Positions 1,219 to 53,254 of a stretch of 64,000 nt of DNA are shown here, one piece after another. Position 1 is the stretch's first letter. Every line of letters begins with the position of its first letter. This DNA is from Octopus vulgaris (Eukaryota), in contig OX597823.1 in assembly GCA_951406725.2 (NCBI GenBank), positions 43,648,001 to 43,712,000 on the forward strand, in the 5' to 3' direction. The position numbers and the translations under genes are program-made. Below the pieces are notes generated by a model. That model did no database searches, was not told where the DNA came from, and saw nothing but the letters and a program-made list of their open reading frames with translations.

Positions 1219-1612
1219 ATAAATGAATGCAAGAATATCTGATTCATAATATTTGTTCTCATGCTCGTGTGTTGTTGGTGACAGACAGATACGTAAAAGA
1301 ACGCCGATGTAATGGGAAGGTAAGAAACAGAGTGAGTGAAAAAGAGAGGAAATAGCGAGAGTGACAGATACTTTAAATAACGGTAGTGGAATCTATCAAA
1401 GTTATAGATAAAGGGGAGTGAGAGGGTACTGGAGGAAATAGCTGAGTGAGGAAGATGGCCCCTAGCAACCACACCTTTTAAGATAGGGATTTCTAAGGTA
1501 GCCCACGAGCTTCGTCACCTATTTCTACATGTCCCTGTAAATTTTGGAGCGAATCGGACGGGACGTAGTGGCATTGAAAGCGATCCGAGCGGTATATATA
1601 TATATATATATA

Positions 1613-2240
1613 TCTTATTATAAAAGGCAGATTTTATCTGCCTCCCTTTGTCTCTTATAGAAATCTACAATATAGGATTTCTTCAATTACAATTTACCTA
1701 GCATTTTTAAGAGTAGAATGCATCGGGTCATGCCAGGTCCAGTTTTTAAAATTTCAACCCCAATTAAGCAAAATTTAGAGAAAACTCACATTGTGGTGTG
1801 TAAGTCAAGTGCTTTTCTTATTGTGGGCTAGAGCACACGCACACACACACACACACACACAAAAACGGAGCGATCTGATTCACTCACGCTATCACTCTAA
1901 TTTCTACTCCTTTCTCTTTGTAAGTGTGCAACGATTAAAGTGAAACTATTTCTATAAAACGAGAGAAGTGTACCTTAATAAACAACTAAAAAAAAACACA
2001 GCAAACAGAAACAAATAAATACATAACGATTTACTCCTCAAACAATTTCTTCAATTAGAGTTTACCCATGATTTTTCAAAGTACTCCATTGGGTCATGCC
2101 ATACAAAATTTCTTTCAATTTTACCCCCAATTAAGACAAAATTCGAGAAAACTCAATATTTTAACATTTCACTCTGCATATTACTCCCACTTTCTCTTTA
2201 CACACATAGACACGCAAATATATAAATAAAATTGTAAGCT

Positions 2241-2313
<73 letters not shown>

Positions 2314-3576
2314 CTGTGTGTGTGTGAGGGTGCGTGTGTGTCTGTGTGTGTGTGCGTGTGTGTGAGTGTGTGACAGGGATGAGCAAGTCAAACTGGTCAT
2401 CCTTTTGCTAGATCACCTAACATCTAAAGTTATCTCTAAGTAGCAGTCGCCCAAAAGTGTATATAGACACACACATGTATGTATAATGTGTGTGTATATA
2501 TTTCCATAGAGGTAACCATTCACTCCATACAAAGTTATTTAGGACGAATTGGACGAATATAAGATCTAAAGTATATCCAAGTAGCAGAAAGTATCGCCCA
2601 AAAGTGTATATAGATATTTAAATGTATTTATATATTCATCTATACACACATGTATGTATAATGTGTGTGTATATATTTCCATAGAGGTAACCATTCACTC
2701 CGCACAAAGTTTTTTAGGACGGACGAAAATCTTTATATATAAAAGAAAGGTTGTGTGTCTGTCTACTCCGATTTAGATTCCTAACTACTCCCACATTTTG
2801 TGATGCAGTTTAACCAAAACCGGGTATCTTATAGTCGTGATTCATATCGAGCCCTTCTGGGTATTAGCGCGCGTCTATGATGAGTCTACGATTTTAAAAA
2901 TAATTTACCATCATTTTTTTCCATTTTAATGCATACTTTTTTTTAATAAAGGGAAGTAACACTCAAACTTCACATCAATATGCGTGCTCATATGCGACGT
3001 AATATCACATCAGCAGCATTTCCTCACACCCTCCTTGCACTTGGCGAAGGCAAAATACCAGGGTATGAAAATGATAATATTGCCATCGATTCCATTTGTA
3101 CCATTGTTAAGACGCCTCCTGATCTCAGAGATGCAGTGTTCCCAGATCTACAAGCTAATTATCAGAATATGGATTGGATTGGCAAAAAGGCTGTACTGGC
3201 CCCGAGGAATAAAACTGTTCACCATATTAATGATGAAATGCTAAAACTCATTCCTGGGGAAGTCTATGTATATCAGTCTATCGATACAACTCCTGACCCA
3301 GAGGACGTCATCAACTATCCAATAGAGGTACTCAATTCCTTTGAGCACCCCGGACTACCACCACACTTTCTCAAACTTAAAGTTGGTGCCCCTATAATGC
3401 TCATCAGAAATTTGGTTCCCCCAAAACAATGCAATGGCACACGTTTGATCGTTAAGTCCTTATCTCCCACCGTAAACTTATATCAATATTTGCCTGAATA
3501 ATCATCATAATTCAGTGCAATCATTAACAGTACTTTCAAGCAATTCAGCCCCGTGCAACGCCGGGCAATTCTGCTA

Positions 3577-3577
<1 letters not shown>
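1613..3577 (+). mobile_element. Composite non-autonomous Helitron with two 5' ends, a Pif1 fragment and a 3' hairpin + CTAG
   Basis: A|TC start at 1613 (tcttattataaaaggcag) and a second A|TC start at 2730 (tctttatatataaaag). The 3' end cccgtgcaacgccggg-caattctg-CTAG|T closes at 3577. A/T insertion context, no TSD. Confidence 0.8.
2980..3501 (+). pseudogene. Helitron RepHel Pif1-family helicase fragment (173 aa)
   Basis: Motifs LLALGEG, VFPDL, AVLAPRNKTVHHIN, YPIEVLNSFEHPGLPPHFLKLKVGAPIMLIRNL and CNGTRLIV are typical of Helitron Pif1 helicases. Truncated at both ends. Confidence 0.92.
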
Positions 3578-3626
<49 letters not shown>

Positions 3627-4511
3627 CTGAAGTTGTCTGGATATATGTATGTATGTATGTGTGTGTGTGTATACGTATGTATGTGTAGAGACCTCTTTTG
3701 GCTCCACCTGAGTTTTGAAACTGAATGGGTAAATTTCCCCCTAACTATAGAGCCTTATTGTTCTGTTGAGGAACAATGTTGTTTTATTCAACCGAAGGCC
3801 TTCCCAACATTTGATTGATGTATTTTCCTCTTGACCCATAACCCTTCTAGTTTGTAAAGGGTTTAAATAAATAATATAAGGGTCTTTACCCTTTCAACGG
3901 CAGATCGAGAAATATATTTTTTGTAACTAAACACTTTCAACCTTCGGACACTAACCCTAACCCTAATGTGTCATATAAAACATATTTTACTTTTAATGTT
4001 ACTCTTGACCGCGGCCATGCTGGAGCATCGCCTTTAATCGAGCAACTCGACCCCGGGACTTATTCTTTTTGTAAGCCCAGTACTTATTCTATCCTTAGCC
4101 AATCATATTGTCTGTTTTCATTTGAAATTATTAGCTGCATAATGTTAATGTGACGTAGATAGCTATTTTGTGAGTGGGTAAGCAGTAAGCAAAAAGCTGT
4201 GGTAGATGTGGTTATCATGGCAGTGGTGGTAGTGGTGACAGTGGATGTGTATGATGGCAGCAATTATAGTGTTGGTGTTTTTGTAGAGGTGGTGGTGGTG
4301 GCGGCAGTGGATGATGATGATAATGATGATGATAGTAGTAGTAGTAGCATTGATTATGTTAGGATGTCTCATGGATGGTAGTGTTGGTGTGTGTGTGTGT
4401 GTATGTATGGATCAAAACAGTTTGATTCAAATTCTGTGATTCTTATATATTCATACATACATATACATGTAGATGTATATAACATATATATATTGTATGT
4501 AAACATCTTTT

Positions 4512-4558
<47 letters not shown>

Positions 4559-4632
4559 GTATGCATCTATAATACACACACATTATAAATATATACACAT
4601 ATATGCATATGCATTAGAATATGTGTGTATAG

Positions 4633-4679
<47 letters not shown>

Positions 4680-5511
4680 TATGTTTGTATACATGTGTGT
4701 GTAGCTATTTAGGATCTAGTTAGCTATTTTAGTTAGCTATTTACATGTTTACGTTAACTACGTCACAAAATAGTTGTTTACCCCACAGTAACAATATTTT
4801 GAGAAGCAGTAAATAATATGAGGTCGAAAGAAAGAATATCATTGGTTAAAATTCGAATTATTAAACAACGTTAAACTTAGAAATTACAATTCCGTTTTCA
4901 TTTTGGTTTACAATTATGTTTTCTTTTGACACATTCTACCAGTATACGAAGTTTCAAATTGTTTAGTTAACTAGGAAAATCTGGCTTTCAAAAAGAAAAG
5001 ATCCTGAAAAAGATTCTATGTAGGATCTCAATCTGATAGAACTAACAAATAGATATTCTAAATATCCTCCATCAAAGTACATTTAACAATGTAGTTTTTG
5101 GTAGATTAAGGTTTGGAATTCGATGGTATGATCCCACCTAGAATGTTTTGGGTATTATGTTTAATTGATCAAAAGTACTATGACTCTCCTTGCTACATTC
5201 ATAATATAACATGATATTCGTTGGTGACTTGACACGCTATGTTCTTAAAATGTCATTGGAGTCAACCACATTAGTGTGGTTCAAACTCTCTTAGCTCTTG
5301 AATCCTCCAATATTTTCAGCACAAAGGACAATGAGCCTTCTCGAAACATCCAGATTGTTCGTTTTCCTCTTAGCTCCATTCGGCCGACTCCCATCGCTAA
5401 AATGTCGTCCCGGAACGAACGTACTTCACTATGTCTTCCTTGGTCTTCAACTTGGTCATTTTTCTCCTTCCGGCGTTCACTCCACCACGATGGTAGCATA
5501 TCTATCCTTGA

Positions 5512-5604
5512 TTTGCGCCAGTAGATCGCCCGATCAAGATAAATAACGAAGCATTAGCGCCAAGTAGTATTATTTACCTTGGTCGGGCGATCTACTGGTG
5601 CAAA
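5512..5604 (+). other. 35-bp stem hairpin
   Basis: tttgcgccagtagatcgcccgatcaagataaataa pairs with ttatttaccttggtcgggcgatctactggtgcaaa: 32 Watson-Crick pairs, 2 G-U and 1 mismatch. Confidence 0.9.
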
Positions 5605-5946
5605 CCAGTCAAAGAGCTTACTGACTTACATATAATGCTCCAGCTTTATCAAGTTGGTTCCAAATTGCCTCACTAAGGTACTCCTCATTGACAAGAGCCA
5701 AAAACCCGAAACATCGATGTCTGGGATTCCTAACAGATGGCAACACTGAACGAACTGACCGTTTTCACACCTTTTTACCATAAGAGTGATTTTTTACTCC
5801 ATGGTAATTGCAGTGTATTTGCCTTTTAGCAGTTGAAATATGTGGCAAACATATTTCAATTAGCCTCAATTCTACTCATAGCTAAACACTGCTTTTAACG
5901 CTAATGCTTCACTTTCCTCCGTTTTCCTTTTCTATTGGACTTCCTC

Positions 5947-5984
5947 TGTTTCTGAAGAAGAGCTCTACTCGAAACGTTAAAACA
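5947..5984 (+). ncRNA. Minimal hammerhead ribozyme-like motif in a Penelope-type repeat
   Basis: tgttt-CTGAAGA-a-gag(ctcta)ctc-GAAAC-GTT-a-aaaca gives stem I, the CUGANGA core, stem II, GAAA and a palindromic stem III. Confidence 0.6.
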
Positions 5985-6066
5985 TCTTTCATTCCTTCCC
6001 TGAGCATCTGCTAATACTTTACATGTACTACGTCCTCGCGTCATTGTGTTTTTGAGGGGGGGATTT

Positions 6067-6106
<40 letters not shown>

Positions 6107-6374
6107 AGAGTAAGCACATAAATGTGAAATCAGGTAGGAAAATAGTACTCGAATACCGGATGTAGACTAATATACCACTTAATAATAATATATATATACT
6201 AACACTAATACCCATCGTTGATCGGATAATTACTTTTACATTTTCTCGGGAGCCACATTCAAAGTATTATTATATATATAATTTACTCCTCTTGTATGTA
6301 TGTATTCTACAAAAGAAAACATTTAATAATTCAAGTAGAACAAGAATCAGTTTGATACACGAAATTCTGTTTTC

Positions 6375-6450
<76 letters not shown>

Positions 6451-6721
6451 AGATAGATATACACATATATGTTTTATATATGTGTATGCATATATATATA
6501 TATGTATATGTATGTATGTATGCATGTATGAATGAATGTATGTATATAAGTGATACATGTCGGCGATTTCTTTTTCTTCTTTGGACTTTTCCTCTTCTCC
6601 TCTCCGACAAAGAATTATGCTCGAAACGTCAAACTATCGCTTTTCACCGAGCGTCAAGCTAAAACATTTTTTATGTATGTCCTCTTGTTTTCCGTTAATT
6701 TTACACGTTTATTTGAATTGA

Positions 6722-6809
<88 letters not shown>

Positions 6810-8248
6810 ACAAAACCTTACTTGGAGGAAACGAAATGAAACGAAACGAAACGACGCGAGGGCGCTCAGTCATACAATAGTGTAATAAATAAAATATATG
6901 CATACATATATGTACGTACCTACATCTACATGTATATATACATGCATATATAAATATATATACGTATAGGACACCACAAATAGACGTAGAACTCAACGAG
7001 AAACGAAAACGTAAAAACAAACATGGAAACGGACCTTTTTTTTAACAACGAAAAAACAGAGTACAAGACAAACAACACAAGGAAAATTCCCCTTCATCAG
7101 CTGTATATATATATATATATATATATATGAGAAATATGAGCTCACAAGCATGTCACAGTCACAGTTTCTATAGAAATTGTATTTCATCTGAGATTAGGTA
7201 AAAAATACATTCGAAATCCGTACCATTTATGCTGAAGACGAACTACCAAAAAAGAAAGCAGAATAGTAACAGAAAAATATCACGCAAGAAGAATATAGAA
7301 AAAAATTAAACGAATAAAAATGTAACTAACAATAAATAACACGTGGGGATAGGGTGCGACTACAAAATATTTCTACCAAGATATTTCTGAACCTAATTCA
7401 CTAGGTTTTTGGAGGAGGAGTGGAATATAACGATCTGATCACATGAATGTAATGTAACTGATTGCCCATTATTGGAAGATACTGGAAAATAAAGAGTTAA
7501 CGGAATAGAGAGAAATTTGAGAAGTTCAAAGGGTAAATTATTCAATATATGTTAAGAATTCTTGCTCGTGTGGAAAGTCAAAAAATAAAAGCAGTAACCA
7601 GATTTATATATGTACTACAATATCGAATCCAGAATAACAAGGACAACGGTTTGTGTTTATCTAGAAATACGTTTCTATAAGTGTATCTTCTATAAATGTT
7701 ATAGAAAAGAACAAGTCCGCTACCTTAATCAATGATATACATAGTTATTTTCCGAAAGCATGATAAATTGGGAGGAAGAAAAGAAAAGATTACAGAAATT
7801 GAATATATGCCATATTCGACTCCAGAAGCCAAACGATTTCTTATAAAATGTTTACAACAAAAAGTAAAATAACAATATTTCACCCAAAAAAAAAATAATA
7901 AAATAAACGGGTGAATCATATAAATTGCCCTGTGCTGAAAACAACAATTGCTTAGTAAGGTTTAGGAGAAAATAAAATGAATACAAACAAATTCATGCGG
8001 GCTAGAAAAAATAACTACTGAGAAAATAATGAGAAAAAATTGTATAAATAAATAAATATGCATATTCGAAATGCAATAATTATATAAACAGGAATAGAAA
8101 TAGAAGACAGCTAAATATATTAAAAGTACGTAAAGGAAATATGAAGCTTACGTTCCAAACAACAGGTCAAATGTTATATATATATATATATATACATAAA
8201 TACATACATACATGCATACATACATGCATATATACATATGAACATATG

Positions 8249-8285
<37 letters not shown>

Positions 8286-8423
8286 GCTCTCGCACACAGA
8301 CACATAATTATATACATATACAAATACAACACGGTAAACTTTGAAAAAACACAAACTGTAACCATAAAAAGACGTTGATCATAAAATATGCAGTATTGAT
8401 AACTAAATTCTAGCATGATGTAC

Positions 8424-8454
<31 letters not shown>

Positions 8455-8482
8455 TGTATGTATGTATGTATGTATGTATGTA

Positions 8483-8514
<32 letters not shown>

Positions 8515-8699
8515 AGTCTATGTATCTATATATGTGTGCATATATATGTGTGTATAGCGAATTAATAAGGAAACCTAAAATCCTATCTGTAAGTTTATAT
8601 ACACACAATCACACATAGGCACACACACACACATACATACATACATACATACATACTTACACACACAGACTCACACACACACATACACATATGCTTGCG

Positions 8700-8995
8700 T
8701 CACAACACTTAAACAGAACCATTTGACCTAAACCAGCCCTGATCTCTTTAACATCATGCCAAGACACGTAAAGAGAAAGAATGATCTCATAACTTTTGAA
8801 ACTGTTTCTGGCTGAATATCTCCAAAAATTCTGAATAGACCAGCTACACTCTCTCATATATCTCTGCAAACAGAAACTGCTTACTGGCATGGGTTATAGT
8901 CTCCAAAAAATGATTGTAATATGACATATTAAACATCTTCTATTAGTCATGTCCTGGGCCAATTCTGGCCGAAAGTTATCTAAATATCAAAGTAT
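8700..8995 (+). mobile_element. Degraded CR1-like LINE 3' end
   Basis: Terminal cctgggccaattctggccgaaag...tatcaaagta matches the element end at 37737-37778. Confidence 0.55.
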
Positions 8996-9486
8996 ATATG
9001 CGTGTGTGCACGTGTGTGTATGTGTATGTGTGTGTGTGTATGGGTGTGTGTGTGTGGGTGTGTGTGTGTGTGTGTGTGCATGCATATATACATACACCTG
9101 CACATAAACACAGATAGCTACATTTACATTTACATAAAAAATTATGCAGGCTACCTCTGTATTACCCCGGCTTGGTTTATGCTAATCGACAGTAAGACGA
9201 GTTTGGAATTTTCTCAAATCGTCGACGATGCTCAACCATTGAAATATCGACCAATTACCACAAACTACTGTGGTTTCAGAAAGTTACATAGAATGCAGAG
9301 AAGATTTCTAAAGAAAAGCTCGAGCTGCCAGCGAATGGTCAACGCAATTGAGATACTCTCGTGGTAAAATGGTGAGATGAGTTGTGATCATTAACATTGT
9401 CAGTGGAAGAATGGAATCAGGAAGATATTCCACCAAGTGAAATATTATTTGCGAGTTACATTATTGTCTTTATCTTGTTTGTTGTC

Positions 9487-9532
9487 AACACAACGTTTCG
9501 GTTGATATGCCCTCCAGCCTTCATCAGGTGTC
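9487..9532 (-). ncRNA. Minimal type I hammerhead ribozyme motif, intact core
   Basis: Reverse complement reads gacac-CTGATGA-a-ggctg...caacc-GAAAC-GTT-gtgtt. Confidence 0.7.
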
Positions 9533-9587
9533 TTGGAGAAATTTCGAACCGGGGTTCTCATTACAAAGTTATTTTTCGATGTTGTTG

Positions 9588-9845
9588 TTAAGTATCTTTG
9601 ATCAATTCTTTGAAGTGGGTGGAATTCTTCATGTACAGTATTGACTTTCCTGCTAATGGACTGATTAAATCCACAAGAAACCGACTTAGTGGATGACATG
9701 CTGAACCTCTACAGTTCACTCTAGGTTTTAATGGAATACCATCATTGTGAATCTTAGGGAGACTGTACATGTGTGGTAGTTTACTGTAGTGTTGAGTCAG
9801 TTGTCTGTACTTCATTGGTGTAAAGTGATCCTTGTTCTTGATCAA
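9588..9845 (-). pseudogene. Penelope-like reverse transcriptase N-terminal fragment
   Basis: MYSLPKIHNDGIPLKPRVNCRGS...LSRFLVDLISPL...KNSTHF matches the YGLPKIHK..PLRPIVS motif of PLE RTs. Confidence 0.85.
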
Positions 9846-9884
9846 GATCTATGGCAACTTATAATAATAATAATAATAATAATG

Positions 9885-9946
<62 letters not shown>

Positions 9947-9994
9947 GTGGAAAAATACCTTAAGAATGAGACCCCAGGTACGAAAATTCCCCAA

Positions 9995-10040
9995 GACACC
10001 TGATGAAGGCTGGAGGGTATATCAGCCAAAACGTTGTGTT
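9995..10040 (+). ncRNA. Hammerhead ribozyme motif with a core mutation (GAAA to AAAA)
   Basis: gacac-CTGATGA-a-ggctg...cagcc-aaaac-gtt-gtgtt. Confidence 0.6.
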
Positions 10041-10338
10041 AATAACAAACAAGCTGAGGACAAATATCCGTCAAATGTAAAAAATGTAAATAATTCCTCA
10101 TCTCTTAAATATAGAACTGTAAACAGAGTTAATTTTACTGAAGTGGAACACAAAGCGTTTGAGGTTAACCCATAGCAGGTTCTGTGAGTTTCAGGAAGTG
10201 TGGCAAGAAGAATTGATATCGAACTTGTTAACGTATTTCCTTCAAAATTCCAAGTCATTCTCCAGTAAAGTATATATTCTAAAGATCTTATTCTGCATGT
10301 AGATGAAGAAGAACATTAACAATAGAAAATAATACCTA

Positions 10339-10562
10339 TTTCTTTACTACCCACAAGGGGCTAAACACGGAGAGGACAAACAAGGACAGACAAACGGATT
10401 AAGTCGATTACATCGACACCAGTGCATAACTGGTACTTATTTAATCGACCCCGAAAGGATGAAAGGCAAAGTTGACCTCGGCGGAATTTGAACTCAGAAC
10501 GTAACAGCAGACGAAATACCGCAAAGCATTTCACCCAGCGTGCTAACGTTTCTGCCAGCTCG
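10339..10562 (-). mobile_element. tRNA-type SINE, family A
   Basis: Reverse complement has a B-box-like gagttcaaattcc and the tail ccccttgtgggtagtaaagaaa. Homologous copies at 32795, 45808 and 49747. Confidence 0.85.
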
Positions 10563-10569
10563 AAAAGAA

Positions 10570-11400
10570 TACCTTCAACGACGTTTATTGCTCTGGAACA
10601 AAATTGTGCTCTTAAATTTTAAACTGCGAAAGATAGATTCCCATTGCTTTTTAATAAATAATAACGTTTTAGGAAACATAATATAAAGGCCGGTGTTAGT
10701 CTTCAACTTGGAAACACTTCGTACGTTGATACAGTTAAATAAGTAACAACTGCCCAGTTGTTAAAAGTCTATTGGAAGGCGCGTGTCACAGAGATGCTAC
10801 TCTTGGACTGCTGCACTAGCTATTTTGAACGGCTGTGTACAACTTCTGTATTGGGAATGGTTTATCATTTGAAGTTTTCGGGGGTTTTTTTTTTCTGTGA
10901 GACAACGCTTCTAGCCATCTCTCGAATTTTAATTAAGTTTAAAGTAAACAGAATTTATAGGCCACCAAACGCATCTTTTCTACAACAAATAAACAAAGGC
11001 GTGAGAATAACTTTTAATGTGTTGCTACGCGCAGAATTCTTTTTAAAAATAAGTTTGTTAGACAGATATCCTTATATGATTAAAGTACGAAGTGCAGTCG
11101 TTTCATATTTTACATCAGTCCATTATTTTATACCGCTGGGAAAATGTAGTGCGGTTTAAATGAATTTTTGAAGTTTCACCCGAGTCAAGGAACGACCTAG
11201 TAAGGTTTTTGATTGACTGAGAATTATTATACATTGCATTCAAATGATGTTTCGAAGTTGATAGAAGATAAAAGTGAAGAGGTTTCAGTAGATGACATCA
11301 TGGAATTTATTGTTGATGGAAAAAGAAGACAAAAGACGTTTATGATGAAAAATTATCACATTAGACGGAACACTTGCACACAAAAAGAGAGGAGAAAAAC
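10570..11400 (+). pseudogene. Degraded pogo/Tigger-type (DDE_1) transposase relic
   Basis: Translated patches VYWKARVT and RPPNASFLQQINKGVRITF resemble the LPPNTTSLIQPMDQGVI..FK motif. Many stops and frameshifts. Confidence 0.6.
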
Positions 11401-12497
11401 AACGAATATATACTAGAATTTATCATGGAGATGACGAAAATGTACACCTTTAAACGATTTTTTGCAAACGCTTATTCTTTGATTGATGAGTGTAATTAAT
11501 CACGACTGGCTGAGAAGTAAATTTGTATAAAGGGGGATTTTAAGGAATTCTCAACACATTGTTTTATAATTTTTAACGATAAAATAATACAGGTAAAGCC
11601 TTCTGAATTCATACTTTTGGAAGGTGAAAGTCTTTTAATTTGGTATCTTGACATCAGTGGATGACCACCAACTGTTGCCGCCATTTGTCTTAATGGTAAT
11701 TCCATTCTTAATACTGACTATTTTTGCATCAATTAACATATTCACGAAAATCGGAAAAGCTTATAACACACAGCCACTGCTTAATTTGTATTCTTTTCTT
11801 AGAATGTTTTGAGTTCTGCCAGTCATAAGCCGGTTACCGAGGTCTTATAGCGTATAAGTGATCCAGATCACAAGAGTCACCCTGAAGAAAGCGCCAGTCC
11901 CTCGCTTATTTTACAGGTCCATCACTTATGTTACTTATTATGCAGATGAGTTGAGTCAAGCAAAGTGAAATGAAGTGTTTTTCTCAAGAACAATACACAA
12001 TACCTCATCCGGGAACCGAAAAGACGATCTTACGCTCACGAGTGCAAATTACCCTAACTGCTAGGCCGCACGCCATCACAAATACTTCCCAACAAGCTGA
12101 TTAAAAGTGATTCGTAAATTATCTTGATTGTGGTACACAGATTCATACGAACTTACTATACAGCGTGATGGCAATCGCAAAACGCCTTCTTCTAGAAAAT
12201 GAACAATGCATCTATGAACCAAGCATAAAAAAACCACTGGATACATTGGTATCAAATTAGAAAAGCTTTGAAACAAACATCAAAAGATTTCAGTCAATAA
12301 GAGTGCAAATTCATTACATCATAACATCAGCCGAGATGTTACAGCGTTGCGCTTACGACCACACGATCGTGGGCTCGATATCTAAACCGTTCGGTGCTAT
12401 GCCTCTCTTCAGCCAGGCGCACCATTTCGCGTTGCCTTAGTCTAGTCAACCGAAAATGTATACTAATCTTGAATTGGTGTCTCTCTCGCTCTCTCTT

Positions 12498-12541
<44 letters not shown>

Positions 12542-13286
12542 GCAGTCACATCATCACTGTCCTTCTCAGTAAAAAGATGGGAACTGAGATGTCGTCTGTT
12601 TTTGTTTGCGACTATATAAACACCTACGATAACTAGCGAAAGCATGGAGCATGCAGCCAACTCATACTCGCTTGAGAGTAACGCCTACAATTAATTATCT
12701 AAACCACGGTTTCGATGCAAAATACGGATCTGAAATCCTAGCAACAGACAAAAAAATAATGATAAACACAATCTATTTTAGATGCACATTAACTGCTTCA
12801 CACAAAATTATATACTGCACTTTGATACAAACAAATTTCGTATGGACAAAAATTGCAGTTGGTTGAATCGATTCTTCTACATTGTATGTAATTATTTATT
12901 GATTCATTTATTGATTATACTTGATCTCTGAATATAGTATGTATAAATTCGATCCCGTCAGTATTTCAAATTAAAACATTAAGGCACTCTACTAGATAAT
13001 AGAAAATATCTAGACAGTTCTCTATAAGCTTCCCCGTCTTCACTGCCCTGAAATCGACCAAAACATATATTGCAAACAGCCAAAATGGGAATATGCAAAT
13101 TTAAGCAATCGCTAATTCATTTATGGATGTATTTATTTGTAAATAAGATTTACCTAATAACTAGCTAGAGACAGTTGTTTGCCGCCGTAGAATCTTCTGT
13201 GCAGGAGTATGAATGTGTATATGTGCGTGTATATATTTCTGCATGTTCCTGTGTATGTGTGCGAAACATGTGCATATATACGTAAG

Positions 13287-13353
<67 letters not shown>

Positions 13354-13355
13354 AC

Positions 13356-13389
<34 letters not shown>

Positions 13390-14534
13390 GTATGTATTAT
13401 GTATGTGTGTGTGTGTGTACAAACACATGTATATATACATATATATGTATGGATATATATATGCTTATATATATATATATATATATATAAGCTTATGTGT
13501 GTGTGCATATGTGTATGTATGCATCTATGTATGTATCTACGTATGTATGTATATAGTTCCAACTCTGGGAACTTTCGTCACGAAATCAAGACGGCGTTTA
13601 TCCTCACACTCCCTGTGGATATCTTAATATAGCTGTCAAATTGATTTATCTGTCGGTTATTTTTAGAATAATTTTGGCAGCAATTTCTCAACCTAATTGG
13701 TTTGTTTCTAAAACATACAGCCCCGGTAAGAAAGCGCTTCACTTCATCATTATTCCACGCTGCATGAGTCAAGTTTAATCGACCAGATGAAGTATAGTCA
13801 CAATTATCTAAAGTAACGATGCAAATAAGCATTTAAATGCAATCATGGGTTGTGTGGAAGGGGCGGGAAGATGGGGGCTGTTGGTTTCAGTCCGTAATGA
13901 CCAGTGAATGATACTAGTAAAAATAATAATAATAGTAATAATAATAATAATAACAACAACAACAGCAACAATAACAACAACAATAATAATGATGGTCATG
14001 ATGATCATGATGTTGATGGCTGAGCGACCGCCTTTAAGATATTTTCCTCTGAATGTGCATCTCATTTCTCTTATTTAAGATCTCAATATTTATCGAGAGT
14101 TATATTTCGTTTACTTAGTTCAGTCGAATGATTTCAGAGAAAACGATGGCTCGTCGCACAAAGGGTGAAGGAATGGATTCTGAGATGGATGGATGCATGG
14201 ATGGATATAAGTTCACACTACTCATATTTACTATCAAATCAGTCTGAGACAAATTTCTTTGAGTTCGATTCGGAGTGATGCGCTATCATTGCATTTTTAC
14301 ACAAAATGTGCGTTGAATACAGTTTTGAATTTAAAAGAAAATCATATGCATAGCTGTGTGAGCAAGAAGCTTGGTTTACAACCAAAACATCTCGAGTTCA
14401 GTCCCACTGCTCGGCATCTTGGGAAATTTTCTACCATAGCAATGCATTTCGCGTACATTTCGTGCACGGAAACAAGAGAAGCCTGTCGTAGATATATATT
14501 TTTTTCTCTCTACATTTATTTATCTACGTGTTAA

Positions 14535-14902
14535 GAAGCTTAATTCCCAACCACACGGCTCCTGGTTCACTCTCACTGCGTGGTAACTTAGGCAGGTATC
14601 TTCTGCCAACCAAAACCTTGTGAGCGGATTTGGTTGACGGAAACTGAAAAAAAAGCCGTCAAACATATGTGTGTGTGTTTGTGCGAATGTGTGTGTGTGT
14701 GTATGTCTTTGTGTCCCCCCCCCCCACCATCGAGTGACAACCGATGTTGGTGTATTTATGCACCCGTTATCTAGCAGTTCGGCAAAAGAGAGCGATAGAA
14801 TAAGTACTAGGCTTACAAAGAATAAGTCTTGGGATCGATATCTTCGACTGAAATACTTTAAGCTCCAGCATGGCTGCAGTCAAATGACTGAAACGTAAAA
14901 GA
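14535..14902 (+). mobile_element. tRNA-type SINE, family B
   Basis: Contains gatagaataagtactaggcttacaaagaataagtc and ccagcatggctgcagtc, shared with many copies in the window. Confidence 0.8.
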
Positions 14903-15577
14903 ATATATATATATATCATCTTCTATTCTATATTAATTTGAAGATACCATGTGTTACATGTGCTGCAATACGATGCAATCGTATTTTCGTTTTGTGAAGT
15001 GAAGTTTGATGGTATACCGATTTTTATTAAGCTTGGTAGTACGATGAAATAAAGCCACATGATTGAATTTAGAAGCAACAAAAATGAATTACGGGATTTA
15101 TTTTCTATTTTTTAGATATTTAACTTTAGAACATTCAATATGGTGCGTAGAAGACAACAGAATGCTCATCTGAAAACCGAAATTCCAGAGGTCGAAGGGT
15201 TAGAAAAACACAAGAAAAAAAGCAGGAATGGCTCTAATCTCAGAGACAACGAAATGTGGAGACACAAGAGCAACCAGGCAAGCCCACTAGAGGGAGCGAA
15301 AGGCACCTGAGCAGAAACGTCAGAAACTGGAGTATCAAGCCGATAGGCAAGCTTGCCTGTGGAAGCACGTAACAGCAGAACAGAAACGACGGAAGTTGAA
15401 ATCTGAAGCCGATAGAAATACCACGCTTAAGAGAACAAGTGTTAATAGTATAACTTCAAAGTAACGCAGCCAGGTTAGTATTTAGAACTTTTTCTCGTGA
15501 ACAGTGGCAACTTGCAGCCTTTAACTACGATACATGCCTTATGAAAACATTTGAGTACAGTACAGATCGGGCGACTG

Positions 15578-15661
<84 letters not shown>

Positions 15662-15664
15662 AAT

Positions 15665-16440
15665 CTAGAAAAAGAGAAATTGTCTGGTTCGCCCCTCCCC
15701 CATTTTTCTCAGAGTCAAAATTTACTAAATCTGTTCTTTAAGATTTTGAAAATATATTTTTCCAAGCACCACAAATATTACCCCATATTTAACAGACACA
15801 CTATAAAATTATCTTACTCTACCACGCCGAATTTGGGATCTATAATTGCATCCTCACATATAACTAAAAACTTAGATCACCATAAGTTAACGCATATAAG
15901 TCCAAATAAAATTAATATAACACAATAGTAAGTGTAAATCTAAACGCAATCAATCCCGACACAACTTTAATAAATCCCAGTAAAATTAAAGATAGGAAAT
16001 CAAAAACGTGTAACTATAAGGGCCCCGAATTATGTCAGGTTGCTGGATTTTGTTTACATAGAAATGTAATTTATAAATGCAGTGTGGCAAATCACAAGCG
16101 CCAGATAAGGATATACATAGGAATCACTATAATTTTTAAGAGACGATATAAAACCCATTTAAATTCCTTCAGTAAGCTAAAATATAAAAACTCAACAGCA
16201 CTAGCGAGATACATTAATCATTTAAAATTACAAAACATCAGTTACACATTATATTGGTCTATTATAGATAAGTCTCGCCCCTTCATACAACACGATTATG
16301 GGCAGAGTTGAATGTGCATAAAAGACTAATACACTATTCTCCGCCTGTATAATTCTACTGTATTAAATAAATTTTCCGATGCTATTTATACGTGTAACCT
16401 CAGATATTTCTCAACTGTCATGAGACTTTGAATGTACTTA
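15665..16440 (+). pseudogene. Penelope-like element linker and GIY-YIG endonuclease relic
   Basis: IFNRHTIKLSYSTTPNL, a Cys-rich linker, NVIYKCSV...IYIGIT..FKRRYKTHLNSF...STALARYI...WSII, with frameshifts. Confidence 0.85.
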
Positions 16441-16894
16441 TTAAGTTACGCCGCACAACTTAACATCATATTGCCAACTTAAATATATATTTTAACAAAG
16501 AGACTAAATAATCTAACTTTTACTCCCATCTGCCCTCATGTAGACTTCCACCATTTGCATAGATATATCTGTTCCACCATACAAAGCATGCAGTTACCTC
16601 ATACCTTCGCATTATTTTCTCTTCACTATAATTTTAATTCTTTATAAAAAAAAGTTTTTATCAATAATCCCATACTACAGTATATTATTACTCTGTTTTT
16701 ATATTCATATATTTATATCTCCATATATATATATATTTAATAATCATATATTTTTTACATTTTTACATGTATTTTATATGTATTTTTAGTATATCAATAT
16801 ATTTTTTTGGACAATTTTTATCTTAAATTAAATCCGTATACTTATATGTTCATTCTAGTTTGCCTGATTTGAACTTTCTCCATTCCATTTATTA

Positions 16895-18177
16895 CGAGGG
16901 GCGTTCAATAAGTAATGCCTCTGACCCACTTGCAGTTGTTTGATCTAGCTGACATTTTGCATGTGCAGTTACCTATATCTCTATAGATTAAGTGGCAAAT
17001 TACAGCTCTGAACTAAATGGGGTTTCTGATTTACAGGTGTTTGAACTGAGTCAAGTGTGAAACGGAGCCTGTTGAGTGTCGAGCAGTGATGCGGTTTTTG
17101 TATTTGAAAGGACGCACACCACGGGAGACTTTTGATGAAATAAAAGTAACTTATGGTGATGATGCCCCATCATATGACCTTGTAAAACGCTGGCATCGTG
17201 AATTCAAACATGGTCGGAACTTTGTGGAAACAGCTCCCAGATCTGGTCGCCCCTTCTGCCATTGATGAGGCATCTGTCCGTCAAGTTGAAGCTGCCATTT
17301 TGGAAGATCGACGCATAACTATTCGCCAAATAGCCCATGAGGTCAAGATTAGTACCGGGTCTGTGGAAACTATCATTCATGACCATTTGCATATGCAAAA
17401 GGTGTCTGCCAGATGGATTCCCAGGCTGCTCACACCTTTCCAGAAGCAAGAACGCGTCGATAGCGCGAGGATGAATTTGAAGATGTGCCAAGAAGATGAG
17501 TCAAAATTTTTCAAAAGACTGATTACACAGGATGAAACCTGGGTCCATCACTATGGTCCAGAGACCAAAGCCCAGTCAATGCAGTGGAAGCACCGTGACT
17601 CACCCCCTCCAAAGAAGGCAAGGGTGTAGCCCTCCGCTGGCAAGGTCACGCTCACAGTCTTCTGGGACCAACACGGAGTAGTGATGACAGATTTCTTGAC
17701 AAAGGGTGCCACAATTACAGGAGTATTATGCTTCACTTTTGAGGAAATTAAGAGAAGCTATCAAAATCAAGAGGCGGAGCAAGATCAGCAAAGGCATCCT
17801 CCTCCTGCAGGACAACGCTCCGATCCACAACTCGCGTGTCGCCAGATCAGAAGCACAGGCGTGCGGCTATGAACTCATCCCCCATCTCCTGACCTGCACC
17901 CTCTGATTTTCACCTCTTCCCAGCCATGAAGTTGTTTTTGAAAGGAAAGCGTTTCCCAGATGATGCAGCCTTGATTTCTGAAGTCACGTCGTGGTTGGAG
18001 GACCAAGCTGGGGTCTTCTACAAAAACGGTCTTCAGAGCTGCATCAAACGATGGGAGAAATGCGTAACTCTGGGTGGTTCCTATGTAGAAAAAGACTAAT
18101 AAAATAACTGTGCCAAGTTTCGTTGCTCTACTGCTATGGGAAGTGGGTCAGGGGCATTACTTATTGAACGCCCCACG
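16895..18177 (+). mobile_element. Full-length mariner transposon (1283 bp)
   Basis: 37-bp TIRs (cgaggggcgttcaataagtaatgcctctgacccactt and its inverse, 2 mismatches). TA TSD at 16893-16894 and 18178-18179. Confidence 0.95.
17062..18099 (+). pseudogene. Mariner transposase, inactivated
   Basis: Start codon appears as ACG. Motifs ARWIPRLL, ITQDETWVHHY, LLQDNAPIH and a frameshifted SPDL.PSDFHLF, ending YVEKD*. In-frame TAG at 17627 and several frameshifts. Confidence 0.93.
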
Positions 18178-27957: not shown

Positions 27958-28222
27958 CATACATACATACACATACATATAAATATACGAATATGTGTGT
28001 ATATGTATGTATATATATATATATATATATATATGCATACACACAAACTCACACACACACACAAACACACATACATACATATGCATTTGATGTCGTGAGA
28101 TCTATATAGTTTTACGAGATTATGAAAGAACAGTTTTAGAAGTGAATCTTGAAGTATAGGTTAAGTTATAAATAATAGCATATTCGTTTTTAATCCCAAT
28201 ATTTACATGCTGTTATTTATAG

Positions 28223-28385
28223 GTTTAACAGTTTGTATCAAAAGCTTTGTTATATTTCAAGCTTTAATTTATATTTCAAACAAAATTACATATGAAATGC
28301 GGTTGTTTTTCAAAATATGTCGCTTCGTATTTTATTGTCTGTTGCCGTTACTGTGCCAAGCTTATACTATTTGGCTGCTTTTGAA
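28223..28385 (+). CDS. Putative coding exon C (xLTVCIKSFVIFQALIYISNKITYEMRLFFKICRFVFYCLLPLLCQAYTIWLLL+)
   Basis: ttatttatag| acceptor, GAA|gtaaat donor, 163-bp open hydrophobic frame, phase 1 to 2, fitting both neighbours. Confidence 0.5.
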
Positions 28386-28984
28386 GTAAATATATACCTG
28401 CATCCGTTTTCAACCACATCCACATTATTGAATTTCGAAAAATGCGATTATCTGCCGGTGCAAAATCTGGATTGGAGTGAGGCTGAGGCAGCATTTCCAG
28501 TTCCTCGAGTTCAAGTCTGCGCTTGGTAACAATTCGCAGAGTGTACTGTTGTAGAAGTGCCCGTGTTCCACTGACCTACCCGGACTGCAAGCTTTCAAAG
28601 CATCATATACTCGCTGCAATTGTTAAGTAGAAAGGTTAGCATTCATAGTATGACCATCTGGGAAATGCTCGAAGTGCAACGACCGCTCGAAATTTCACCA
28701 AACACACAAAATGATCTTCAGTTTCTACTGCCCTTGTTTGACAATGGGTCGTGATGACTGGCTGGAATGAAGCCACTGATTTCTCTTAGGGAGATTACGA
28801 AAATAAATCCATTTTTCATCCCTTGCTACATTTTAACGCCAAAACACAACCAACTAGAGCAATTACCAACAATCGTTTGCGGATGTTCACACGTCATAGA
28901 CACTGCTCGTTGTTTTGTTCATGATTATATTCTCGATAGCGTCTATTCACAAGGCCGAGATTATGTATATGTCGATTGATGGTG

Positions 28985-29259
28985 CTTTGTGAAGGGTCAA
29001 GTGCTGCAAACAGTTCACGAGTGTTTGTCATTGGCTGCTATTCAACCAATTCTAGCAAAGCCACATTTTCCAGCTTGGTTTTTCTTCGAGGATGACGTCA
29101 CTTTCTTTGATTCACCTGAACCAGTTTTGTGTCACACATTCGTTGACAGTTCCTGTTCCCTCCAGTTCATTAATTTCTTTTGCTCGCTGCCATTGCACTC
29201 AGTCCTTTTTTCCACAGGTAGCACTAAATCACTATAATTTCAATTTTTTGAATACTCAT
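28985..29259 (-). pseudogene. Mariner transposase N-terminal HTH relic in the inverted-repeat spacer
   Basis: MSIQKIEI...YLWKKGLSA...GTGTVNECVTQNWFR*IKESDVILEEKP resembles the mariner WF.RF..GD..LED.PRSGRP region. Confidence 0.75.
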
Positions 29260-29874
29260 TAATGGAGCTGTAAAATAAAGAATAAATAATTCAGTACGAT
29301 TGTACAAGTAGTTGAATCAAATTAATGATATAATGTGCAGTTGGGATTTTCCAAAACTTATCGGTGAGAATACAACAACATCTGCAAACGATTGCTGATA
29401 ATTGCTCTAGTTGCCTGCTTTTTTTGGCGTTGAAATGTAGCAAGGGGTGAAAAAGGGATCTATTTTCTCAGTAAGAGAAATCAGTGGCTTCATTCCAGCC
29501 AGGCATCACGACCCATTGTCAAACAAGGGCAGTAGAAACTGAAGATCATTTTGTGTGTTTGGTGAAATTTCGAGCGGTCGTTGCACTTTGAGCATTTCCC
29601 AGATGGTCATACTGTGAATGCTAACCTTTCTACTTAACAATTGCAGCGAGTATATGATGCTTTGAAAGCTTGCAGTCCGGGTAGGTCAGTGGAACACGGG
29701 CACTTCTACAACAGTACACTCTGCGAATTGTTACCAAGCGCAGACTTGAACTCGAGGAACTGGAAATGCTGCCTCAGCCTCACTCCAATCCAGATTTTGC
29801 ACCGGCAGATAATCGCATTTTCCGAAATTCAATAATGTGGATGTGGTTGAAAACGGATGCAGGTATATATTTAC

Positions 29875-30037
29875 TTCAAAAGCAGCCAAATAGTATAAGC
29901 TTGGCACAGTAACGGCAACAGACAATAAAATACGAAGCGACATATTTTGAAAAGCAACCGCATTTCATATGTAATTTTGTTTGAAATATAAATTAAAGCT
30001 TGAAATATAACAAAGCTTTTGACACAAACTGTTAAAC
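29875..30037 (-). pseudogene. Antisense duplicate of putative exon C with its splice sites
   Basis: Mirror of 28223-28385 with 2 substitutions (I>V, F>L). Confidence 0.5.
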
Positions 30038-30088
30038 CTATAAATAACAGCATGTAAATATTGGGATTAAAAACGAATATGCTATTAT

Positions 30089-30320
30089 TAGAAACTGAAG
30101 ATCATTTTGTGTGTTTGGTGAAATTTCGAGCGGTCGTTGCACTTTGAACGATTCCCAGATGGTCATACTGTTAATGCTAACCTTCCTACTTAACAATTGC
30201 AGCGAGTATATGATGCTTCGAAAGCCTGCAGCCCGGGTTGGTCGGTGGAACACGGGCACTCCTACAACATGACAACGTGACAGTACACTCTGCGAATGTT
30301 ACCAAGCGCAAACTTGAACT
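30089..30320 (+). repeat. Third, more diverged partial copy of the arm sequence (direct repeat of 29533-29752)
   Basis: tagaaactgaagatcattttgtgtg...aacttgaact restarts exactly at the end of the right arm, with substitutions and a small insertion. Confidence 0.92.
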
Positions 30321-30943
30321 TTGACTCAACCTGGTATATGTGCCTCATGATCCAAAAGAGAATTATATATAAACGTGTGTGTGCACGCGCATCTGTGTGC
30401 ACGTGTGTTTAGAGAGAGGAGGAGAGAGTGAGTGTGTGTGTGAGTGAGAGAGACTGATATACTGACAGCATCAAAAGTACGTAGATGATCTACAAACATC
30501 TATTCAGAGATTGACTCAATAATAAAACAAATAGAGCAGGCAATACCCTTCGCACTATTTTAGCTGCATTGAAATCAATAAATATTAAGAGAATATCAGT
30601 GACTTGACGTTAAAAGCATTTTTTCATGAAACTTCGTTTTGATTCGGCCGAGCTTTAAACTCTGCTGCCAACTCAGATTCGTAAACTAAATGAGACTAAA
30701 TGTGAAGTACAATAGATTCGTCATAACCAAACAACGGCACCACACAAAAAGACGTCACGGAAACACGTTCTTTCACATGAGTAATCAATCAGGAGATGAT
30801 TGGAAAACAATGACAGATAAAAATCCCTATTTGAGGAAAACCAACGTGAAATCTTGATAGGACACTAACAATATTATTTCTATGCAATTAATATATATTA
30901 TAATATATAGGCATGAACATATATATATATATATATATATACA

Positions 30944-33062: not shown

Positions 33063-34038
33063 TGAGAGTCGGCTGAAAAGTTCATAGGTTGACCAAGAGA
33101 ACCTCATAAAATATGACCATACGAGGTTTATTTTTTAACATAGTCCCCTTTATGGTCCACACATTTTTTTCATCGGTAATGCTGTGTTTGAATCTTATTG
33201 GTGAAGAAGCTTTCAACCTGTTATTTAAACAAGTCATCAACAGCAGATACAACGTTGCCATCAATCCGATAATGCTTGCTAGTCAAGTGCCGTTAGATGT
33301 TAGAGAACAGATGATAGTCAGATGGGGCCAAATCAGAAGACTAAGGAGGATGATCAAACTGTTTAAAACCACACTCACGCACAACAGCCATTGAAACTTA
33401 TGTTCTGTGCGCTGGAGCATTGTCGTGATGAAACAAGACCCCTTTTGTCAGTTTTCCTCAGTATATTTTCTTATTAGCTTTTCATAATTACCTAAGTAAG
33501 TTGACATAGTATTTTCCATTGATGGTGTGGCCCATTTGCAGATAGTCAATTAGCACAATGTCTTTTGTATCACAAAAAAAAAGGTTCATCATCTTCTCTG
33601 TAGATGAAACCACGCTAGCCTTCTTTGGGGAAGGTTACGAGGGGTGTTTCCACCGCATGATTTGTCTCTTTGTCTCTGTCTCAAAGTGATGAAGCCAACA
33701 CTCATCCTGAGTTAGGATACATTCAAAGAAACCAGCTGTATCAATCTAAAACAACGTCAGATTTTCCCGTGATGTGATATGCTTGGTGTATTTTTTATCA
33801 GGAGCCAGAAGATGTGGCACCCACGAAGCAGAAACCTTCGGCATGCCAGGTTTATTGTACAGCATATTCAGAACTCCCTCACGGGATATACTAATAGTAC
33901 TGGGTATTTAATTTATAATCAATCACATGAGATGAAACAATGCAGTTGTCAATAAGGGTTGAAATTAATGCATGCAAGATTTCACAGCTGTAGCATCACT
34001 CTTCTATTGTCAGCCAATGAATTTTCAACCCACCTTCG
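33063..34038 (-). mobile_element. Old degraded mariner element, internally deleted
   Basis: Imperfect ~30-bp TIRs. Minus strand shows WVPHLL, HHDNAPAH, DLAPSDYHLF and CVDHKGDYVKK*. TA at 34039-34040. Confidence 0.85.
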
Positions 34039-51360: not shown

Positions 51361-51944
51361 ATATATACATATATCAACTTCCTGTGTTGAACTTCCTGTC
51401 TTTGGCCTCCTAACAAGCTATTTACACACGCACGTATGTATACATCATTACAGTTGCGACGATATCTGATAAATATTTTTAAAAAAACAGAATTTCTAAA
51501 GGTCCTTTCATGTCAGAAAAAAAATTCATACGGAGAAAGACGCCTTTTTCTCAATTAATTAAATGAGGTACTGTATATTGTAAATTGATTTTCCAATACA
51601 TATTTCGGACAATTTTGGAACAAGTCGCCTTATTAAGACTTGATATTTCACATTTAAATTATTCTTGGCGCAAATCGACTTTACACCTTCACTTAACTGT
51701 TTTGTCAGTGTCAACATAGTAACCAGCTATTTACACACACACACACACATATGTATACATCATTACAGTTGTGACAATTTCAGAAAAATAAAATTAAGTT
51801 CCAAAGTTACTTTCATTTTTTATGTTTTCCAGCTTTCTGTTTGTGTAAGATATATGCTTATGTGAGTGTGTGTCAGTGGGAAACAAAATTTCAGACGGAT
51901 TTCATTTAATTGACCAATTGTCAAAAGGGTATAACTATAAATTA

Positions 51945-52681
51945 CTGCCCCTACCCACGACTTTCGATGATCATAACTTTCAGGAAAATGGATATTTCTA
52001 ATGAAATTTTCTACGAATATGTGTTATATCATGTAAATTTCTAATATACAAAATATTTTAGGGAAAAGTTTTTAGGAAGGCGTGAGGGAGGATATTCGGT
52101 TAAAATTCACCGGAGTCCACTTCACTTCACTTAACTTTCAGGAAAAATGGATATATTTTTAAAGAAATTGTCTATAAATATGCTTCGTAATATGTACATT
52201 CCGAGCATATAGGAAATTGGGCAGAAAACAATTGGGGGTTATTTTTGCGAACCGTTCCCCACTCGGGAGTGTTTCGGAACAGGTCGTCCCTATTTGTTAC
52301 TTTTTCTCTGTTTTGTGCGTTTCTGCATCCGTACAATTCTATTGAAGCAACAGGCAATGAAGGCAAATGAAGCCCTTACAAGAAAACTCATACTGAATAT
52401 AATAACTAAATGTCTGGTACACAGATATATGTTATTAAGACGGCTTAACTGTTGCATAAGATATTTTTTTCAATTTCAGTAAATTCCCAGGTAAACGTTT
52501 CTAATACAAAGGCAGAAGACACCAGAAGCAAAAATAAGGAATACACACGCACAGTTAAATATAGGAGTGTAAAGTATAATTTGTTACATAATCTCTATAA
52601 TAAACATGATATTGAATGGAATAACTCCCAGTTTGAACTTTTTCCATTATGTGTGTGTGTGTGTGTGTCTGTGTGTATCTG

Positions 52682-52722
<41 letters not shown>

Positions 52723-53213
52723 ACACTGAGAATAAGCATGCCACCTATTTTTACTTTTAATTTTTCTACGGATTCCGACCTTGTCTCCAACGGAGATTCT
52801 GAATATCCAAAAAATCTACGTTTAGACTTTTTAATACACCCACTACTGAAATTTTCAATTTTTTTCCCGAAATTTTACGACTAGGGTTAAAGGTTATATA
52901 CGGATGCACAAATGCACAAAACGGAGAAACTGAGACAAATATAAGCAACTTGTTCCGAAATACGCCCCAGTGGGGAGCAGTTCGCAAAAGTTTTCCCCAA
53001 AAATCGTATATGCTTGGAATCTACATAGTCCGAGGTATATTTGTAGATGATTTCATTAAAAAAATATCCATTTTCCCCCTTCTAAAAACACTTTCCCCAA
53101 AAAATTTTGTATATTCGGAATTTACATGATATAACACATATTCGTAGAAAGTTTCATAAAAAATATCCATTTTTCTGAAAGTTATAACATCCAAAGTCGG
53201 GTGGGAGTGGCAG
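51945..53213. repeat. Diverged inverted repeat (arms ~51945-52333 and ~52899-53213)
   Basis: ttctacgaatatgtgttatatcatgtaaatt and its exact inverse near 53119-53149, with collinear similarity out to tgcatccgta / tacggatgca. Confidence 0.88.
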
Positions 53214-53254
53214 AAAGCCTGTGGTGAGATGGTACCAAATGTTAATGATATCAT

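Follow-up and report, generated by a model that had tools for sequence, protein, structure and literature searches.

How did two inverted arms come to be nearly identical over their outer portions while their inner portions have clearly diverged? This question is raised by a locus in the stretch of DNA that was analysed here (64 kb, referred to below as the window, which contains 0 N). An earlier note, made from the letters of this DNA, had proposed that a recent template switch between old inverted repeats, acting as long TIRs around a mariner HTH relic, captured flanking host sequence including a candidate exon. Comparison of the window with itself places the inverted copies at 28171-28887 (left arm) and 29377-30089 (right arm). 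The features on which the argument relies are as follows.

28167 to 28221, no strand: hairpin with a 15-bp stem, in repeat X (fold z of -2.2 on the minus strand and -3.4 on the plus strand, for a region picked after the hairpin had been seen)
28171 to 28227, no strand: copied host flank, part of the high-copy repeat X and not an exon, as judged by contig depth and loose ends
28226 to 28242, minus strand: 3' TIR-like end of copy A with its TA (28226-28227), from comparison of its right-arm copy (30018-30034) with 30320-30336
28309 to 29259, minus strand: decayed mariner transposase frame, copy A, with stops and frameshifts and with 13 bp missing at the second catalytic motif (the end at 28309 was placed by eye)
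28888 to 29376, no strand: single-copy spacer, holding the 5' half of mariner A with its two HTH regions, the upstream end of A and a linker of ~40 bp
29377 to 29532, plus strand: inner part of an old partial mariner copy, B, residues ~131-185, with 13 substitutions and 2 indels relative to 28887-28728 (tblastn)
29533 to 30088, plus strand: recent 556-bp inverted duplicate of 28727-28172, with 5 differences in 557 bp, carrying the 13-bp loss of A
30088 to 30090, no strand: return junction with 1 nt of microhomology, spanned by record 3 of run X1
30089 to 30336, plus strand: outer part of copy B, residues ~186-260, HDN motif kept, internally deleted, with a 3' TIR-like end at 30320-30334 and TA at 30335-30336
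30339 to 30355, no strand: resumption of repeat X beyond the A+B pair, matching the X4 loose-end consensus at 14/17 positions

The arms differ from one another at two distinct levels. Relative to the left arm, the first 99 bp of the right arm (29377-29475) carry 12 substitutions plus indels of 2 bp and 6 bp, and one more substitution lies in 29476-29532. The outer 557 bp (29533-30089) carry only 5 substitutions (0.9%) and 0 indels, and the difference between these and the 13 substitutions of the inner 156 bp (29377-29532) is highly significant (Fisher P = 5e-6). At 30089 a second copy of 29533-29752 begins, which carries 12 substitutions, one 13-bp indel and one 1-bp indel. When 29377-29532 is joined to 30089-30320, the composite aligns collinearly with the left arm from 28887 to 28508, and the rates at which its two parts have diverged from that arm are alike (13/150 and 14/219, P = 0.42). 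The two-age anatomy is confirmed. The earlier note had therefore read the layout correctly, both in its ~99% identical outer arms beside diverged inner ones and in its more diverged repeat that begins exactly where the right arm ends. Its proposal that an old inverted pair (28509-28887 versus 29377-29532 plus 30089-30320) came first also holds, as divergence along the arms is not uniform and the composite is collinear with the left arm.

Divergence within the old pair is itself patchy. Only 1 substitution falls in the 117 columns around the restart, versus 9.7% elsewhere (P ~9e-5, post hoc). This patch corresponds to 29472-29532 plus 30089-30144 of the window, and it may reflect an earlier conversion or chance. 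It has no explanation in the recent copying event itself.

The arms had been taken for long TIRs flanking an HTH relic, but they are the transposase's own catalytic half. A mariner protein of 343 aa that carries PF17906 and PF01359 (P0004, among the 150 best listed of 357 proteins found at E <= 0.001 in a profile search) aligns by tblastn along 29259-28325 through residues 1-138, 153-233, 235-286 and 289-332, all collinear. Moreover, 28228-28507, the portion of the arm beyond the reach of the old pair, is matched in tblastn by 14 of 14 full-length mariner proteins (E 9e-10 to 0.003), and the reversed-stretch control gives a best E of 0.05. Given these two results, the arms are the transposase's catalytic half and run on into the HTH relic of the spacer. 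When stops are read through as X, 28569-28880 matches PF01359 (E 2e-8; 34.2 bits, cut-off 24); this segment also matches Mos1 (E 2e-7).

Pfam assigned a mariner domain to 0 of 11 short open frames, with weak, chance-level matches in 2 of the 11, and a word-indexed homologue search found none. Reading through the stops placed PF01359 on 1 of 7 stretches and gave weak HTH matches on another. The C-terminal stretch compared with PDB yielded Mos1 at E 0.07, a match that is weak by itself, and it was tblastn with the reversed control that decided the assignment.

The frame of copy A fits a transposase of ~345 aa, with HTH followed by the catalytic domain, interrupted by stops and frameshifts. Its 5' half is still in place at 28888-29259. 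The first and third Asp motifs of the DD34D triad are seen in copy A, whereas the second is gone with the 13-bp deletion and is kept in copy B. For a 5' TIR of A or B and for the source of the ~40-bp linker, 5 local alignments gave nothing better than shuffles; the best comparison on the 5' side reached 8/9, which 214 of 500 shuffles equalled.

These assignments bear directly on the proposed exon. The earlier note gave no coordinates for it, and we assume that it corresponds to the open frames of 75-77 aa at 28296-28575, which encode mariner residues ~235-332, i.e. the C-terminus. Exon capture by a long-TIR element in the manner of a Pack-TIR has in its favour that the A+B pair is bounded on each outer side by a TIR-like end with TA and today includes 56 bp of non-mariner DNA from nearby. 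Furthermore, PMC8277862 describes single-copy Pack-TIRs as products of gap filling that is transposition-independent and biased to cis. However, all 14 mariner proteins match 28228-28507, and the copied non-mariner flank amounts to only 56 bp, which are part of a high-copy repeat. In addition, no non-repeat open frame of at least 90 codons stood out near the locus when inspected by eye. We consider it very unlikely that a host exon was captured.

The outer ends of the two mariner copies can be recognized by comparison. The 3' end of copy A (30018-30034 in the right arm, 28242-28226 in the left) matches the end of B (30320-30336) at 14 of 17 positions, an agreement reached by 1 of 500 shuffles. 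At least four contigs from other loci, across three runs, join sequence resembling 29964-30007 to sequence resembling 30320 onward, and thus 30320-30334 can be identified as the 3' terminus of the family, followed by TA. A high-copy host repeat (repeat X) begins at 30033, the mirror position of 28227, where each run yields 20-25 contigs with loose ends before 30033 and the summed contig depth is 1,235-17,058 in bins 30019-30094.

On the opposite side of the pair, 30339-30355 is the sole site on either strand of the window that matches the reversed X4 loose-end consensus at 13 or more of 17 positions. A search for a second copy of repeat X within the 64-kb window found none. TA lies directly outside both outer 3' ends, and an extra TA is present at 30337-30338. 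These findings suggest that the A+B pair sits, 3' ends outward, inside one TA site of repeat X. In the contigs of the three runs, nothing points to a long-TIR family that is young and dispersed at >=90% identity; in 3 of the 5 bins of 29753-29942, the whole depth at 90% likeness comes from a single contig in each run.

Only 5 bp separate the hairpin at 28167-28221 from the site of mariner insertion, and the copied tract ends within its outer arm (28171). As copied (30033-30089), its stability is no better than that of shuffles (z -0.7). By analogy, the flank hairpin might have had a part in ending synthesis, which we offer only as a suggestion.

The recent tract consists of 500 bp from the 3' part of mariner A (to 30032) and 56 bp of the repeat X flank. 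Because it carries the 13-bp loss of A, which is absent from B, the tract derives from A. B-type letters stop at 29503, and the tract first departs from B at 29592, placing the first switch within 29504-29591. The return is at 30089 (equivalent to 29533) with 1 shared nt, and therefore lies somewhere from 58 bp before the point of departure to 29 bp after it; 1 nt of microhomology is what chance alone gives. Thus, the template switch proposed previously is borne out in so far as 556 bp of the left arm and beyond were copied with a return near the departure point, but what we take to be its candidate exon is the mariner C-terminus. The TA that flanks the tract was also considered as a transposition target duplication and was rejected, as any direct restart gives TA and the tract ends without a TIR.

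The stretch or part of it occurs in 12 of the 24 sequencing runs listed, and the region 29753-30880 was compared with contigs of three of these 12 (X1, X2 and X4) and with raw run X15. Runs X1 and X2 are from organism A (different studies) and X4 is from organism B, a close relative. The comparison covers 24 of 655 contig pieces, 18 of 144 loose ends and 80% of X2, and is of contigs, which drop bubbles. A 3% sample of X15 contained 0 raw reads on 29753-30880 and so has no bearing on the junction.

The return junction is found in organism A. Record 3 of X1 is an 85-bp contig identical to 30034-30118 at 85 of 85 letters, with a depth of 23.8 and with 55 and 30 letters on the two sides of the junction. 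In this run the outer arm has a depth of 35.9 compared with 19.6 for the right flank, and 30089-30144 has a depth of 66.7, corresponding to at least three copies. For X2, the outer-arm depth is 137.7 and record 11 begins exactly at 30089, at a depth that implies a single-copy value of 59 with the duplication or 100 without it, where single-copy contigs have depths of 47-61. No X2 contig across 30088/30089 was found among the pieces listed from the 80% of the run that was covered. Relative to the median depth of single-copy contigs, which were chosen by the analyst for calibration, the arm stands at 1.9 (1.5-2.0) in X1, 2.3 (2.3-2.9) in X2 and 1.0 (1.0-1.5) in X4. Neither the spacer nor the inner arms show an increased copy number, and three copies appear only where the old paralogue contributes one.

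An assembly artefact, produced by stitching two inversion haplotypes together or by a mis-walk through the repeat, might be entertained given that 0.9% resembles an allelic distance and that the restart lies inside an exact repeat. Such an error is nonetheless highly improbable, since the junction occurs at single-copy depth in an independently assembled contig and the arm is two-copy in both organism A runs. X1 may be the source sample of the assembly, yet contigs derived from reads would not reproduce a scaffolding error. The 30088/30089 junction is genuine and not a misassembly.

Organism B appears to lack the tract. Contigs of X4 differ from the window at 9 of ~990 aligned bases, and their arm depth of 49.5 is similar to the 48.4 of the outer part of B with its flank. 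Record 20 of X4 shows that the outer part of B and the right flank are present. Record 19 passes through 30089 with 13 other letters upstream, and record 18 departs at 30089 for 103 other letters; we assume that these letters of records 18 and 19 represent the left flank and 29520-29532, respectively. A sister lineage without the tract, which the earlier note had advised looking for, is thus apparently found, on indirect evidence from one run, namely an arm at 1.0x with the outer part of copy B present. The 556-bp tract is therefore likely absent in organism B, and the direction of change would be a gain on the lineage of organism A. The 13-bp loss of copy A is common to organism B, indicating that it predates the duplication.

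At the 5 sites where the arms differ, the single copy of organism B has the right-arm letter in 5 of 5 cases, and the left-arm letter is shown at 2 sites by X1 and at 0 by X2. The arm differences therefore look like left-arm haplotype changes, and the true age of the event may be less than 0.9% would imply. These same letters mean that 0.9% is no clean clock, which suits a scheme wherein the duplication is older, its arms were kept alike by repeated gene conversion, and organism B lost the tract through a direct-repeat deletion. The low-divergence patch hints at earlier conversion, and a deletion between the 59-bp direct repeats would likewise yield the state of organism B. However, identity of 99% extends without an indel up to the AT-rich tip at 28171/30089, whereas the adjoining inner arms have not been homogenised. 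We regard this scheme as quite unlikely.

In the right flank, the window agrees with organism B against both organism A runs at 30661 and 30675 (one substitution and one 3-bp indel). The simplest reading of this pattern is a polymorphism shared between very close lineages.

The explanation that we favour, and that is probably correct, is a recent inverted copying from A into B of an old head-to-head mariner pair, rejoined by 1 nt of microhomology. The old layer would have comprised a full mariner A on the minus strand and a doubly deleted B on the plus strand, head to head with 3' ends outward, both within one TA site of repeat X and drifted 6-9% apart. B may have inserted beside A or been derived from it. 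In the recent layer, copy B would have been broken, or a fork stalled in it, near 29533, and the 3' end so produced would have paired with A where the two copies are most alike (in the right arm, B and A show no difference from 29504 to 29588). The first switch (29504-29591) falls inside the 117-column patch, a natural site of strand invasion. Reverse synthesis along A could then have proceeded past the limit of homology with B (28508), through the 3' end of A and 56 bp into the flank (28171), and the new strand would have been joined at 30089 to B's opposite end. The product would be a 556-bp inverted insertion made without transposition and with no coding gain.

At the level of sequence, a fork template switch with order 3-2-1-4 or 3-2-4-1 would be equivalent. 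In long-tract conversion, a one-sided invasion can be followed by end joining. By analogy with such systems, the repair pathway may have been long-tract homologous copying closed by end joining, or a template switch at a fork.

As no single molecule was seen to span both junctions, the spacer between the near-identical arms could lie in either orientation. This bears on an inversion with flanking duplication, in which the spacer of the ancestor was reversed. Here, a fork moved from the left patch to the right patch and copied back the spacer, the left arm and the flank before joining at 30089. As reasoned from the alignment, this path yields the exact sequence of the window, and it is compatible with short-read contigs that break at the shared patch. 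Likewise, the same two junctions are described as arising in several conformers in PMC11293582. It would nevertheless have to return within ~60 bp of the site of invasion by chance, whereas the insertion model expects a return to the broken end. An inversion of this kind therefore seems unlikely, and we retain copying from A into B as the working explanation.

The rearrangement is a real, recent and small example of known inverted-repeat template switching, and it can be compared with several described systems. In the DUP-TRP/INV-DUP rearrangements as described in PMC11293582, one junction lies in inverted repeats and the other has 1-9 bp of microhomology in 14 of 24 cases and is blunt in one. 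Our locus shares the homology junction in an inverted repeat, the reverse copying and the second junction with minimal microhomology. It differs from the rearrangements described there in its sub-kilobase scale, in its use of transposon relics that are 6-9% diverged rather than low-copy repeats of >99% identity, and in being found in 2 of 2 organism A samples rather than as a patient mutation. Its inverted piece comes from outside the interval, so that the locus lacks a triplicated unique segment and does not belong to that class as PMC11293582 presents it.

The event fits the four-point model of short-range template switching (PMC7954356), at a larger size. As in the events described there, a nearby reverse-complement fragment is inserted, the return lies close to where copying departed (order 3-2-1-4 or 3-2-4-1), and a near-perfect inverted repeat is made from an imperfect one. 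A three-fragment alignment, with the ancestral state drawn from X4, represents the descendant as the left part of the ancestor, a local reverse-complement fragment and the right part. Unlike those events, whose searched sizes are given as 'tens to hundreds of nucleotides', the fragment is 556 nt from ~800 nt away, at or above that range, and point 1 of the model is placed no more closely than 29504-29591. Features in common with long-tract gene conversion and FoSTeS/MMBIR, as reviewed in PMC4888836, are over-long copying off a homologous template and a return with microhomology, although the pathway is not readable from one junction.

Rearranged mariners with long TIRs made from one duplicated end have been described as Rpmar17 and Rpmar49 (PMC4678618) and as Dromar MITEs (PMC4161770). 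Our locus resembles these in its long inverted arms of transposase-coding sequence and its two 3' ends facing outward. Unlike Rpmar17 and Rpmar49 as portrayed in PMC4678618, it keeps its 5' half, and no end has been replaced by a copy of the other. Compared with the accounts in both papers, it also gives no sign of amplified copies at >=90% identity, and its near-perfect arms arose long after the elements decayed. With single-copy Pack-TIRs (PMC8277862) it shares a transposition-independent cis capture of nearby DNA by template switching. However, unlike the Pack-TIRs of that account, the element itself supplied 90% of the filler, by way of long homology, and the remaining 56 bp are repeat with no gene fragment. 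No earlier paper on this locus was found in the literature searched.

Long arms that are almost perfect and have TA at both ends can therefore form without transposition, which calls for caution in repeat annotation and in calls of 'exon capture' made from sequence only. The locus provides a clean animal germ-line example that involves two dead transposon copies and is dated by a sister lineage. With no host gene affected, the rearrangement probably has no biological consequence, although the new 557-bp inverted repeat could let the 0.8-kb interior flip.

Of wider interest is the conversion of a dead mariner dimer, with no transposition, into a unit with 500-bp near-perfect arms. This unit (28228-30032, 1.8 kb) has arms of 99% identity, each followed by TA. 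It is conceivable, though doubtful, that the locus displays both missing steps in the birth of a long-TIR mariner, namely a head-to-head dimer in one TA site and then a template switch that creates the unit. If so, the dimer would be the progenitor that PMC4678618 only hypothesised, in proposing a mariner dimer or close copies as the source of long TIRs, and dead elements would look young in TIR-based annotation. Should such switches recur at mariner dimers genome-wide, they would offer a general route to rearranged mariner elements, whose origin is called elusive in PMC4161770.

The window holds additional decayed elements. A second mariner-type transposase, distantly related and near full length, occupies 17065-18093 on the plus strand (profile E down to 2e-26), and a third, comprising residues ~89-341, occupies 33131-33907 on the minus strand (profile E 5e-42). 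An old inverted pair at 51942-52333 and 52899-53216, with 75-87% identity, a ~570-bp spacer and ~85-nt subrepeats inside its arms, looks like a decayed TIR or foldback element. Finally, an open frame of 183 codons at 2950-3501 on the plus strand encodes a Pif1 helicase 2B domain (PF21530, E 3e-15) and is probably a Helitron fragment.
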